Assembly (NCBI GenBank): GCA_050633305.1
Contig: JBOEGF010000032.1
Coordinates: forward strand, 128,001 to 192,000
Reading direction: 5' to 3'
Length of the DNA: 64,000 nucleotides
Origin: Nannocystales bacterium
GTDB lineage: Bacteria > Myxococcota_A > Polyangia > Nannocystales > Nannocystaceae
Every line of letters starts with the position of its first letter. Position 1 is the stretch's first letter. Below are positions 1 through 25,672 of the stretch, piece after piece. The notes beneath the pieces are model-generated. The model was not told where the DNA came from. It saw only the letters and a list, made by a program, of their open reading frames with translations, and ran no database searches. Made by a program: the position numbers and the translations under genes.

Positions 1-398
1 CCATGGTCCTTGGCGTGTTGGTAGCCCGCCTTGACCTGGCCGAGGATCTGCGGCTCCCCGATGACGATCGACTCCAGACTCGAGGCAACACGGAAGATGT
101 GGCGTGCCGCATCGAAGGACTCACGGACGAACGCGGCGGTCCGCAGCTCCCCGATCGGGACGTTCTTGCACCGCGCGAGAACATCCAAAGCCGCCGTGCC
201 GCTGCTCTTCGCGTCGTCCGAGACCCCGTAGATCTCAACCCGGTTGCAGGTGGAGACGACCATCGCCTCGCGGAGGTTGGCGTCGTGCTCCAGTGCGTCG
301 AGCAACGAGGCACGCTCTTCTTCGGACACGGCCAGCCGCTCCCGCAGCTCGACCGCGGCACCGTTGTGGTTGATCCCCAACGCGACGAGATCGGTCAC
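1..398 (-). CDS. hemA: Glutamyl-tRNA reductase, N-terminal part (runs off the left edge)
   Basis: Minus-strand translation MTDLVALGINH...ELRERLA...VVSTCNRVEIY...HIFRVASSLESIVIGEPQILGQVK contains the GluTR STCNR catalytic motif and the GEPQILGQVK signature. The GTG start overlaps the upstream stop (GTGA). Not in the ORF track because it is truncated. Confidence 0.95.
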   Translation of the reverse strand, partial: MTDLVALGINHNGAAVELRERLAVSEEERASLLDALEHDANLREAMVVSTCNRVEIYGVSDDAKSSGTAALDVLARCKNVPIGELRTAAFVRESFDAARHIFRVASSLESIVIGEPQILGQVKAGYQHAKDH

Positions 399-22246: not shown

Positions 22247-23034
22247 TGCGTCGATTGGGGTGCCTGCTCGCGCTCGGCCTCAGCGCCTGCCCAGGACCCC
22301 GGACTGATCCGCCTCCCAGTCGACCGACACCCGAGCCCGCGCCAACCAAGGGGCTGCGCTCCTGTCCGGCGTCCCCCTCCTTCGAAACGCTGTCGTGGGT
22401 GCCGCCCGCGGCCGAAGCCGTGACGCTGATCGATCTGTCCAGCGACGCGCTGCCCGAGGCGCTCAAGAACCTCTCGGACGGAGTGCGGACGCCGCAGCGA
22501 CAACTTCCGATCCGCGTCTCGTTCGCGCTGGGGCAGTGGACCTGGCAGGTCCCGCTGCTGCGCACCACGCTTCGCCAAGCCGGCTTCGAACCGCAACAGC
22601 TCGTCCATGTCGCGCTGCCGGACGGCACGTCCGCGTGGGGCTGGTCGCCGAGTTGCGAGCTGGAAACGCTGAGCACCAACCTTGAGCAGGGCTGGCAGCT
22701 CCCGCTGCGCGCAACACCCTACGGGGCCGTCGCGATCGCCGGTTTGACCGAGGATGGGGATCCGGAGTTTCCCTACGACTTCCTCGTATACGGGGCGTCC
22801 GCGTACCTCCTGGTTCCCGCAGGGCGGGCCCACGCCGTGGCCCAACGTTTCGCCGAGCGTTCGAACGACCCTTCAGAGCCAGGCCTCGGCGAGCTCGCCG
22901 ACGGTCTCGAGGCAGCGCCGATTCGCCTGGTGGTGCGGACCGGCTCTCTGCTGACGCCCGGGGCGGACGCGAGCGCCCCATCCTCCACGACGACGCATCG
23001 CATCGATGCCCAGTCGTGGAACACCGGGCCGTGA
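22246..23034 (+). CDS. Hypothetical lipoprotein
   Basis: MRRLGCLLALGLSAC lipobox. TGATG coupling with the upstream gene. Confidence 0.7.
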   Translation: MRRLGCLLALGLSACPGPRTDPPPSRPTPEPAPTKGLRSCPASPSFETLSWVPPAAEAVTLIDLSSDALPEALKNLSDGVRTPQRQLPIRVSFALGQWTWQVPLLRTTLRQAGFEPQQLVHVALPDGTSAWGWSPSCELETLSTNLEQGWQLPLRATPYGAVAIAGLTEDGDPEFPYDFLVYGASAYLLVPAGRAHAVAQRFAERSNDPSEPGLGELADGLEAAPIRLVVRTGSLLTPGADASAPSSTTTHRIDAQSWNTGP

Positions 23035-23132
23035 GTCGGCGACCCTGCCCCGTGCGGCGACGACCCATCTCCCGGCGGATTCGGCCTCACTTTTGCTGGA
23101 ACCTACGGATGCGGGACATTACGCTCGCGCCC

Positions 23133-23645
23133 ATGTCTGCCGAACGCGTGATGGCACTCCTCCCTCCGATGCTCGCCAAGGTGGCGGAGCTCGACCCAGC
23201 CGCCGCCACCGACCCACAGCGGGCCTCGGGTGTCCTGGCAGCCCTACGCGAGGCGTTCCCCGAAGACGGAGAGGCTGTTCGGGAGCTTGGCGCAGCACTG
23301 AATGCAGGTGTGGCCGACGGAACGATCTGCAACCGAGGTGACGAAAACGCCCGGTTCTGTCGGCTGGCCAAAGCCACCGAGGCCACGCACGGGCTGTCGA
23401 TCGACGTCGTCTCCCTCAAGGGTGCCGCGCTGGAACACACCCACCCAAACGGCGAGGTCACGCTCGGGTTTGCCGCAACCGACCAAGACGGCGCCGCGCG
23501 CTTCGACGGACACGCCCCCGGCTGGGTATTCATGCCTCCTGGGTCCAGGCACGTCCCCACGGTGGATGGGGGCCGCATGTTCCTGATCTACTTCCTTCCG
23601 GACGGAGCGGTGACCTGGCACCCCGAATCGTCGACCTCGGGGTGA
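23133..23645 (+). CDS. DUF4863 family (PnbB hydroxylaminobenzoate lyase-like) cupin-type protein
   Basis: SIDVV...HTHPNGEV...FDGHAPGWVFMPPGSRHVPTVDGG...YFLPDGA matches the family as I recall it. Confidence 0.8.
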   Translation: MSAERVMALLPPMLAKVAELDPAAATDPQRASGVLAALREAFPEDGEAVRELGAALNAGVADGTICNRGDENARFCRLAKATEATHGLSIDVVSLKGAALEHTHPNGEVTLGFAATDQDGAARFDGHAPGWVFMPPGSRHVPTVDGGRMFLIYFLPDGAVTWHPESSTSG

Positions 23646-24581: not shown

Positions 24582-24610
24582 TTGCTGATCCGGCCGGTTT
24601 CGGCTACACA
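24582..24610 (+). promoter_or_regulatory. Putative sigma70-type promoter for the first tRNA
   Basis: TTGCTG-N17-TACACA, about 40 nt upstream of the tRNA 5' end. Confidence 0.45.
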
Positions 24611-24651
24611 CCACGCTCGCGAAACACCCATACGGGCTTCGCGCTCCCCCT

Positions 24652-24726
24652 GACCCCATCGTCTAGCGGCCAAGGACGCCGGCTTTATTCAAGTCGGAAA
24701 CAGAGGTTCGAGTCCTCTTGGGGTCG
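24652..24726 (+). tRNA. tRNA-Glu-like gene with a 9-nt anticodon loop (atypical or pseudo)
   Basis: Full cloverleaf: acceptor GACCCCA/TGGGGTC, D-stem GTCT/GGAC, anticodon stem CCGGC/GTCGG with loop TTTATTCAA, 4-nt variable loop AAAC, T-arm AGAGG-TTCGAGT-CCTCT. Confidence 0.85.
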
Positions 24727-24763
24727 TCCAGCCGGGTTTTTCATCCTCGACTCATTTTTCTGC

Positions 24764-24792
24764 TTGCATCCCGGGGAGCTGGCGCGTAAAAG
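24764..24792 (+). promoter_or_regulatory. Putative sigma70-type promoter for tRNA-Glu/tRNA-Lys
   Basis: TTGCAT-N17-TAAAAG preceded by a T-rich tract, about 40 nt upstream of tRNA-Glu. Confidence 0.5.
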
Positions 24793-24832
24793 CTCCCCCA
24801 CTTCAACGGCTGCCCCTTCGGAGGCATCCTTT

Positions 24833-24904
24833 GGCCCCATCGTTCAGCGGTTAGGACGCGAGGTTTTCATCCTCGAAACCAGGGTTCGATTCCCTGTGGG
24901 GTCA
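24833..24904 (+). tRNA. tRNA-Glu (TTC)
   Basis: Cloverleaf GGCCCCA/TGGGGTC, anticodon arm CGAGG-TTTTCAT-CCTCG, T-arm CAGGG-TTCGATT-CCCTG. CCA not encoded. Confidence 0.97.
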
Positions 24905-24912
24905 CTAGATTC

Positions 24913-24985
24913 GGGCTAGTAGCTCAGCTGGCAGAGCAGCTGACTTTTAATCAGCGGGTCGTAGGTTCGAACCCTACCTGGCTCA
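24913..24985 (+). tRNA. tRNA-Lys (TTT)
   Basis: GGGCTAG/CTGGCTC acceptor, anticodon arm GCTGA-CTTTTAA-TCAGC, T-arm GTAGG-TTCGAAC-CCTAC. Confidence 0.97.
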
Positions 24986-24989
24986 CTCC

Positions 24990-25028
24990 AAGGGTCTCGG
25001 CGCTACGGCGCCGGGGCCCTTTTCATTT
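24990..25028 (+). terminator. Rho-independent terminator of the tRNA operon
   Basis: AAGGGTCTCGGCGC-TACG-GCGCCGGGGCCCTT hairpin (with G-U pairs) followed by TTCATTT. Confidence 0.85.
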
Positions 25029-25048
25029 GCCCACGGTCTCGCGACACT

Positions 25049-25672
25049 GTGTTCGTGGTGCCCATCGATGAAGCCGCCGCGCCGACGCCCGAGAGTGTCG
25101 AACTGAGCATTCGGCGCAGCTGGGACGCCGGGGACATGGAGACCGCGGCGACCCTCGCGATTCGCGGCTATGGACCTGAGCTGCTCGGGTACCTGCACGC
25201 GATGGTCCACGCGACCGACCCCGACGAGCTGTTCTCACGACTGTGCGAGCAGCTGTGGAAACATCTCCCCTCGTTTCGCTGGGAGAGCAGCGTACGGACC
25301 TGGACGTACACCGTGGCCCGGAACCTCGCGCGGGGGGAGGCTCGTGCGGCCGCGGGCCCACGCGGCAAGGTCGAGGGCTTGCGCGAGACCCACGCATCGC
25401 GCATCGCTGCGGACGTCCGCAGCACCACCGCCTTGCACCTGCGAACCGACTCCAAGGACGCCCTGCAGCAGATCCGCGATGAACTCGACCCCGACGATCG
25501 CACGCTGCTCATCCTGCGGGTTGACCGCGGCATGGCCTGGCGCGAGATCGTCGAGGTCTTGGACGACGGCGGGCATGAACATGACCCAGCCAAGGCCGCT
25601 GCCGCCCTCCGCAAGCGCTTCGAGCGGCTCAAGGAGAGGCTCAGGCGCGAGATGGCGGCGCTTCGCTCATGA
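25049..25672 (+). CDS. ECF-type sigma-70 factor
   Basis: Region 2 FRWESSVRTWTYTVARN and region 4 LDPDDRTLLILRVDRGMAWREI...LRKRFERLKERLR. Confidence 0.88.
   Translation: MFVVPIDEAAAPTPESVELSIRRSWDAGDMETAATLAIRGYGPELLGYLHAMVHATDPDELFSRLCEQLWKHLPSFRWESSVRTWTYTVARNLARGEARAAAGPRGKVEGLRETHASRIAADVRSTTALHLRTDSKDALQQIRDELDPDDRTLLILRVDRGMAWREIVEVLDDGGHEHDPAKAAAALRKRFERLKERLRREMAALRS

Follow-up and report, generated by a model that had tools for sequence, protein, structure and literature searches.

Organization of the tRNA cluster

The window, that is, the whole analysed stretch of 64,000 nucleotides, carries a cluster of three tRNA genes on the forward strand: a tRNA-Glu-derived gene with an enlarged anticodon loop (24652-24726), hereafter the odd tRNA gene, a normal tRNA-Glu(UUC) (24833..24905), whose body descends from the tRNA-Glu(CUC) isoacceptor of the family, and a normal tRNA-Lys(UUU) (24913..24986), whose position identifies the ancestral location of the odd gene. 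According to a terminator scan, the cluster ends in an intrinsic-terminator-like hairpin (24990..25031, +). An ECF sigma factor is encoded directly after it (25049-25672, +), and an open reading frame matching PnbB, of the 4-hydroxylaminobenzoate lyase family, is located at 23016-23645 (+).

The candidate sigma-70-type promoter of the odd tRNA (24582..24610, +) consists of a -35 box TTGCTG (24582-24587), a 17-nt spacer and a -10 box TACACA (24605-24610). Although a generic sigma-70 scan returned no site at this position, the boxes are kept at the 17-nt spacing and at a plausible distance in 13 of 16 orthologous loci, with a variable spacer sequence, namely in all ten loci with enlarged loops and in the related genomes G003, G005 and G014, which supports the original prediction that the gene has a candidate promoter of its own. 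They are absent from the metagenome loci L130 and L136 and too near the gene in G018. In L130, several tandem GC-rich units of about 29 nt stand in place of the usual promoter region. The 5' leader holds a hairpin (24618..24643, +; -11.5 kcal/mol, z -2.56), and similar inverted repeats were recognized by eye in the aligned leaders of relatives. A T run about 10 nt past the odd gene (24737..24741, +), kept in the ten enlarged-loop loci, is a possible processing or termination site. A second candidate promoter (TTGCAT, 17 nt, TAAAAG; 24764..24792, +), visible as conserved blocks when the intergenic spacers are aligned, precedes the normal tRNA-Glu and tRNA-Lys, which thus would need no transcription through the odd gene. 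Within the spacer between the two tRNA-Glu genes, 13 bases (24738-24750) duplicate a stretch of the normal tRNA-Glu (24864-24876) that covers its anticodon loop and 3' stem; a repeat of this kind was reached in 5 of 20,000 shuffles, is not common to relatives, and is possibly the product of a local template switch or of chance.

Structure of the odd tRNA gene

The odd gene extends from G1 to the discriminator G73, and no CCA is encoded directly after G73. All four stems pair, the anticodon stem with 5 bp, and the acceptor, D and T arms are intact. The gene matched the Rfam tRNA family (RF00005) with 49.5 bits (gathering cut-off 29), the insertion falling in the loop, and its cloverleaf folds with -30.6 kcal/mol (z -2.9). 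The U13.G22 pair, the 4-nt variable loop and the GG of the D loop (G18 G19) are retained. The anticodon loop, TTTATTCAA (24684-24692, +), was delimited from sequence, folding and orthologue alignment and has 9 nt; TTC at 24688-24690 is the sole triplet invariant among the ten enlarged-loop genes. According to RNAfold, two bases at either end of the loop can pair, leaving a 7-bp stem with a 5-nt loop. The T arm (24702..24718, +) contains A49-U65, G50-C64 and A51-U63, and the neighbouring tRNA-Glu has C49-G65, G51-C63 and also A50-U64. Loop length, paired stems, U13-G22, variable loop and T-stem pairs were all as the original prediction had described them.

The ARAGORN run proposed in that prediction returned Asn(ATT), by way of an alternative 6-bp stem, rather than tRNA-Glu. 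Identity as tRNA-Asn(ATT) was rejected: the triplet is ATT, CTT or TTT among the orthologues, in which both these bases and the loop length vary, and the body is of the Glu type. Annotation tools label the enlarged-loop genes wrongly, as Asn or Lys.

The 9-nt loop is real. An assembled contig of run X1, possibly the source sample itself, spans 24627-24822 with one mismatch and no gap, and an assembled X3 contig shows gaps solely outside the loop; contigs of runs X2 and X4 also cover the gene and bear on its presence only. The assembly indel considered earlier is excluded, since enlarged loops are found in the four closest species and in 5 of 7 metagenome loci and the X1 contig is gapless.

Distribution among relatives and in metagenomes

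The genus comprises seven genomes (G000, the source genome, to G006), and G014 and G018 are the nearest genomes outside it. In a search of 40 relatives, the three-gene cluster was present in all six other genomes of the genus, in G014 and in G018. Loops of 9 nt were found in G000, G001 (TTTCTTCGA), G002 (TTTATTCGA) and G006 (TTCATTCGA), and a loop of 8 nt in G004 (TTCTTCGA), so that the four closest species all have 8- or 9-nt loops and the orthologues are not all normal. G003 and G005 (TTCTCAG) and G014 (TTCTCAA) have 7-nt loops reading CUC. The G018 orthologue combines an 8-nt loop with a bulged T stem.

A tolerant pattern for Glu-type tRNAs with loops of 8-11 nt had matches in 5 of 72 family genomes, G000, G001, G002, G004 and G006, and in no others; G018 was missed owing to the bulge in its T stem. 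The exact pattern, run across all species genomes, gave five loci that repeat relatives already included and were not counted anew. The metagenome scan gave seven loci, five with 9-nt loops, including three new loop sequences, and two with a 7-nt CUC loop and a bulged T-stem base. This bulged base occurs in the orthologues of G018, L130 and L136. A viral origin was rejected, as no viral contig matched the odd tRNA pattern.

Conservation of the body and variation of the loop

Outside the loop, 66 of 66 positions are identical in the five enlarged-loop species, whose gltX genes differ among each other at 42-55% of fourfold sites (30 of 187 columns invariant). Across the ten enlarged-loop loci (five genomes and five metagenome loci) the body of the odd tRNA is invariant at 65/66 positions, the normal tRNA-Glu at 72/72 and the tRNA-Lys at 69/73, and 20 of 123 columns are invariant in the upstream 110 nt; the invariance of the metagenome loci is partly by construction, as the search pattern fixed about 40 of the body positions, while the five genomic loci came from BLAST and not from the pattern. 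The alignments show purifying selection acting on the body of the odd tRNA.

The loop behaves differently. Eight distinct loop sequences occur in the ten genes, and only the first U and the UUC at the 3' side are fixed. UUC is preceded by A in this genome and by A, C or U across the ten genes, with no fixed U, and is followed by A in three and by G in seven. A triplet counted from the 5' side of the loop would specify different amino acids from species to species. The conserved body and variable loop support the earlier suggestion of a functional, conserved tRNA-Glu derivative that has probably lost decoding.

Evolutionary origin

In 21 loci (of 39 matches) from four other genera this gene has the form of an ordinary tRNA-Glu(UUC) and immediately precedes tRNA-Lys(UUU), and in those genera a second body type carries CUC, beside tRNA-Gln(CUG). 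By this comparison, the odd gene is the ancestral tRNA-Glu(UUC) of the family, displaced by a copy of the other isoacceptor. The genus, G014 and G018 form one clade in the GluRS tree (support 93/94). Within it, a copy of the second body type acquired the UUC anticodon and lies between the old gene and tRNA-Lys, and the old gene switched to CUC and had its T stem altered. As G014 and G018 have kept the original CUC gene as well, decoding in these two genomes does not depend on the old gene, which is retained nevertheless. The claim that the odd gene is not a recent copy of its neighbour is borne out, the two bodies deriving from two ancestral isoacceptors.

The five enlarged-loop species group together on a single branch (100/98), with G003 plus G005 as its sister, and loop enlargement in them is thus a single event; G018 represents a probable second one. 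The series of 7-, 8- and 9-nt loops shows a stepwise exit of a tRNA from translation.

Predicted affinity for EF-Tu

Affinities were summed by hand from Table 2 of PMC3239215, which gives -0.5 for A49-U65, 0 for C49-G65, 0 for G50-C64, -0.2 for C50-G64 and +1.1 for A51-U63. The calculated values are -9.5 kcal/mol for the odd tRNA, -10.1 for its neighbour and -10.8 for the gene in its ordinary form. With a class mean of -10.4 kcal/mol (sd 0.48) and an outlier threshold of 1.3 in that source, the odd tRNA is 0.9 kcal/mol (1.9 sd) weaker than the mean, short of the threshold. The original prediction of weak EF-Tu determinants was right for A51-U63 (+1.1) and wrong for A49-U65, which is 0.5 kcal/mol tighter than C49-G65 of the neighbour; according to PMC4052509, A49-U65 is weak solely against G49-U65. 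Both pairs are already present in the orthologues with 7-nt loops, and about 1.3 kcal/mol of calculated affinity was lost at the displacement, before loop growth. Weakening or bulges of the T stem also occur in G014 and G018.

Determinants for GluRS

The source genome encodes one GluRS, a second class Ib match of GlnRS size and a GluQ-like protein, among which solely GluRS was scanned by name. Of the E. coli GluRS determinants U11-A24, U13-G22:A46, absence of base 47, G1-C72 and UUC (PMC9976931), the odd tRNA keeps every one; the weak U2-A71 pair is inverted. A37, a strong determinant in E. coli (PMC9976931), is retained here, where the 3' side of the enlarged loop reads UUC-A, and is G in seven of the ten enlarged loops. 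By analogy, the fixed UUC at the 3' side would be the part that GluRS reads.

The GluRS residues aligned to Thermus Arg358 and Arg435, whose roles are described in PMC2978374 and PMC12088422, are conserved. Position 435 (Thermus Arg417) is Lys in all five enlarged-loop species and in none of 57 others, and position 449 (Thermus Ala431, in the wobble-base pocket) is Tyr in the four species with 9-nt loops. In a comparison of 30 GluRS sequences, only K435 and A438, out of 208 conserved columns, are fixed for another residue in the five species; with 62 sequences, 5 of 205 columns qualify and their clustering is not beyond chance (permutation p 0.52). Co-evolution of GluRS with the enlarged loop is therefore a lead only, and the loss of any C34 tRNA-Glu in the five species would explain the change equally well.

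Proposed function

We propose, with a probability of about 0.7, that the odd tRNA is a non-ribosomal glutamyl donor, whatever its client. The old tRNA-Glu(UUC) was displaced, turned to CUC with a weaker T stem, and then had its loop enlarged in one sub-clade while the rest stayed fixed. The present tRNA would be expressed from a promoter of its own and, after maturation, would receive glutamate from the single GluRS, for which UUC on the 3' side of its loop and the core of its D arm would still be recognizable. Weak binding to EF-Tu and the malformed loop would keep it off the ribosome, and its glutamate would go to enzymes that read the acceptor end and the core alone. The most likely recipient would be glutamyl-tRNA reductase (GluTR), the enzyme of the first step of haem synthesis; that GluTR is the main client is nevertheless put at somewhat under even odds.

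GluTR is not known to read the anticodon. The gene was found in 7/7 genomes of the genus and in 67/72 of the family, with its catalytic motif intact, and on these searches GluTR would be the only such enzyme present throughout the lineage. In the source genome (92% complete) no ALA synthase scored over the cut-off, the best match being Kbl. The hemA gene to which the original prediction had drawn attention is in the window, as far as its first 398 bases are concerned (1..398, -; TIGR01035, 431.6 bits, cut-off 209.55), and the remainder lies left of the window. Its nearness to the odd tRNA gene (24 kb) carries no weight, being ancestral synteny: the distance is 10-19 kb in genomes with an ordinary tRNA-Glu(UUC). 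GluTR is nearly universal, and its presence does not discriminate. Co-evolution of GluTR with the enlarged loop was rejected, none of 132 conserved columns being changed specifically in the five species. Nothing was found that would prevent the normal tRNA-Glu from serving GluTR, and some genomes of the family have C13 in both isoacceptors. GluTR leads as a client because the departure from the norm began in genomes in which the gene of the alternative client, a Fem-fold enzyme, was not found.

This alternative, which we hold only tentatively and consider rather doubtful, is that the odd tRNA serves as the private glutamate source of a Fem-fold, aminoacyl-tRNA-dependent transferase. This enzyme would place an amino acid onto a 4-amino sugar of a surface polysaccharide, and an adjacent GNAT domain would acetylate it. 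The gene (G000:C10:753672-754724, 351 aa) is on another contig, between a PglC-GNAT fusion and a PglF-type dehydratase and after a DegT aminotransferase, in a cluster with the order DegT, PglC-GNAT, Fem, PglF, GT4 and O-antigen-ligase-like. The FemAB search matched all five enlarged-loop genomes, weakly, and orthologues with 58-82% identity are present in all five, where the cluster is syntenic. At E<=1e-20 there is no orthologue in G003, G005, G014 or G018 (completeness 84, 72, 71 and 92%), and in G018 a profile search gave no match either. In G005, which has a 7-nt loop, the cluster is uninterrupted, and what is missing from it is precisely the Fem gene and the GNAT extension. The protein profile matches FemX (E 4e-14) and the model has a pLDDT of 94; in fold it comes closest to Sba18 and Sbb17, two aminoacyl-tRNA-dependent enzymes whose structures were solved with streptothrisamine, an amino sugar, and next to FemA and FemX. 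The T-stem pairs of the odd tRNA equal those of the staphylococcal tRNA-Gly species that serve Fem enzymes (PMC4052509).

Several observations argue against this client. No Fem-type enzyme is known to us to use Glu-tRNA. The pattern represents one gain or loss (n = 1); the same subfamily (31-43% identity) is found in 13 other genomes of the family without an enlarged-loop tRNA-Glu, six of them at an equal profile score; none of 20 loci has tRNA genes near the Fem-subfamily gene; and the T-stem weakening or bulges extend to G014 and G018, two genomes in which the search gave no Fem gene. The family is, moreover, widespread (708 proteins among 8000 candidates scored). As judged from gene distribution, the Fem-fold enzyme fits the occurrence of enlarged loops better than GluTR. 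The two clients are not mutually exclusive, and both links rest on one evolutionary event. The complete scheme, in which a private tRNA-Glu, kept from the ribosome by its enlarged loop, feeds a Fem-fold enzyme that glutamylates a surface-polysaccharide amino sugar and GluRS was adjusted at its anticodon-binding helix so as to go on charging a tRNA with a loop unreadable to ribosomes, may be entertained with similar reserve.

Two further Fem-like proteins were observed. A second, more distant Fem-fold gene of G004 (G004:C26:167537-168541) lies beside another PglC and a GT4. A PF04339 FemAB-like protein (L285, G000:C18:268920-270101), encoded beside clpS and clpA, was set aside as a client, being common to normal-loop relatives; it occurs in G003, G005 and G018.

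A role on the ribosome is unlikely. The odd tRNA would then read GAA/GAG through a 3'-stacked UUC with the extra bases bulged, or cause +1 or +2 shifts. Enlarged anticodon loops can decode triplets and shift the frame. On its 3' side, every one of the ten loops has UUC followed by a purine, and the calculated weakening of EF-Tu binding is moderate. A canonical tRNA-Glu(CUC) is found in 63/72 genomes of the family and in none of the five enlarged-loop species, the only clade without it (the nine genomes lacking it are these five and four that are 63-90% complete), the orthologue of the odd gene is the sole CUC gene in G003 and G005, and gltX uses GAG 26-36 times against 3-6 for GAA; this lack of a CUC gene is the strongest argument for residual decoding. 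On the other hand, the loop has 8 nt in some species and 9 nt in others, the bases available for an extended anticodon are not the same in all of them, no U is fixed before UUC, and in one locus (L135) the second base of the loop is C; a 7-nt loop with U directly before the anticodon is absent from the odd tRNA, which has 9 nt and A before UUC. A normal tRNA-Glu(UUC) is encoded next door in 7/7 genomes of the genus, two such genes are present in the source genome, and mnmA is present. The tRNA-Gln(CUG) of the family is also missing from the genus, so that wobble reading of G-ending codons is tolerated: the pair tRNA-Gln(CUG)-tRNA-Glu(CUC) was not found in any of the seven genomes, though CAG and GAG dominate gltX. 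P. aeruginosa likewise has tRNA-Glu(UUC) alone (PMC12088422). A clear shift of gltX codon use away from GAG was not found in the five species. The frameshifting proposed originally, taken as a fixed role, is at odds with loops of 8 or 9 nt in eight different sequences among ten genes.

It is quite unlikely that the odd tRNA acts uncharged, as a ligand tuning GluRS or GluTR, as a stress signal, or as a decoy or resistant reserve against anticodon nucleases. G37 in 7/10 loops and the closed, enlarged loop may block charging, and rapid change restricted to the loop would likewise agree with escape from a nuclease. Against this, UUC does not vary, which is what a need for reading by GluRS would predict, a decoy should copy the loop of its target rather than depart from it, and no partner for an uncharged role was identified.

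LanB-type dehydratases, named as possible consumers in the original prediction, are very improbable clients. Full genes occur once in G004 and three times in G018, with a divergent one in G000; the N-terminal domain was not found in G001, G002 or G006 (77, 92 and 94% complete) and the C-terminal domain occurs in 2/7 genomes of the genus. So patchy a distribution cannot explain conservation in all five species, and LanB is largely refuted as a shared cause. The protein of G000 (L070, G000:C10:600960-603809) is a highly divergent LanB-like protein of 949 aa, with a clear C-terminal domain and an N-terminal domain barely over the cut-off. As for other clients, no CDPS was found in G000 and no MprF-type domain in any of the five enlarged-loop genomes.

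It is hardly credible that the gene is an assembly error, a pseudogene (the young pseudogene considered originally is excluded) or a structure kept merely for processing the downstream tRNAs, as ten independent loci have enlarged loops, the body is conserved like its working neighbours, and the odd gene and the downstream tRNAs each have their own conserved promoter boxes.

Comparison with known systems

As a non-ribosomal donor, the odd tRNA would work most like the plastid trnE of Balanophoraceae and the non-proteinogenic tRNA-Gly of staphylococci. In Balanophora and Rhopalocnemis (PMC13128298, bioRxiv 10.1101/2025.10.06.680833) trnE was interpreted as serving tetrapyrrole synthesis only, a role that is itself inferred. 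These sources describe a tRNA-Glu that, like the odd tRNA, is under purifying selection, with acceptor and T arms kept, a variable anticodon arm and conflicting identities from tRNA finders, decoding being left to another tRNA-Glu and GluTR being present. Traits of trnE found here are a conserved body with change in the anticodon arm and, in the source genome, the C5 pathway with no ALA synthase. Unlike the plastid case, the odd tRNA belongs to a free-living bacterium with a full tRNA set, its D arm is invariant, UUC is held and the T stem is weakened.

The S. aureus tRNA-Gly species NP1, NP2 and NEW (PMC4052509, PMC12256121) share A49-U65, A51-U63 and the calculated -9.5 kcal/mol, and in both systems a normal copy stands alongside and a Fem-fold enzyme is encoded in the genome. 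They have a normal UCC loop and have lost G18G19, whereas the odd tRNA, which would be charged with Glu, retains G18G19 in combination with an enlarged loop; it thus lacks a defining feature of the staphylococcal kind.

In Helicobacter pylori, too, an extra tRNA-Glu(UUC) with reduced affinity for EF-Tu occurs beside a normal copy (PMC3239215); it is much weaker (-8.0 calculated), and the available portion of that paper mentions no enlarged loop. Isoacceptors are likewise split between haem and protein synthesis in Acidithiobacillus ferrooxidans (PMC4284751), in the opposite direction, one isoacceptor being no substrate of GluTR and serving translation only, and with two GluRS against one here. 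The best sequence and fold matches of the Fem-fold candidate, Sba18/Sbb17 (PDB 9WQY, 9WQW, 9WQX) and FemX, are aminoacyl-tRNA-dependent; the candidate has 15-23% identity to them and belongs to a polysaccharide cluster, not to an antibiotic or cell-wall pathway.

Within the open-licence literature, a coverage that leaves most subscription papers outside, we found descriptions neither of this gene nor of any bacterial tRNA-Glu whose loop is enlarged by nature, and none of a haem-only tRNA-Glu in a free-living bacterium; for reduced plastids such a tRNA has been inferred. How translation and haem synthesis divide Glu-tRNA between them is a long-standing question (PMC4284751). The candidate, its neighbour, the sister forms with 7-nt loops, GluRS, GluTR and the Fem enzyme can all be made from sequence, so the proposal is directly testable in vitro. 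The odd tRNA offers a natural tRNA-Glu scaffold that would avoid the ribosome, and if the Fem-fold enzyme were truly its client, it would represent a new Glu-tRNA-dependent reaction and a new use of Glu-tRNA.

Other tRNA genes of the genus and family

The second normal tRNA-Glu(UUC) of the source genome (L103, G000:C27:150671-150743) differs by one base and has promoter-like boxes of its own; the other six genomes of the genus have one normal copy each. Additional tRNA-Glu(CUC) genes with unusual anticodon arms are present, besides the usual one, in two genomes of the family (G044:C45 and G045:C8). Small, divergent arrays of extra tRNA genes were also observed in the source genome on contigs C13, C27 and C47 (His-Gln-Pro; Tyr-Ser-Ser-Ser; Leu-Leu-Arg-Arg), the assignment to C27 resting on output order, and these arrays include two tRNA-Leu genes without the long variable arm.
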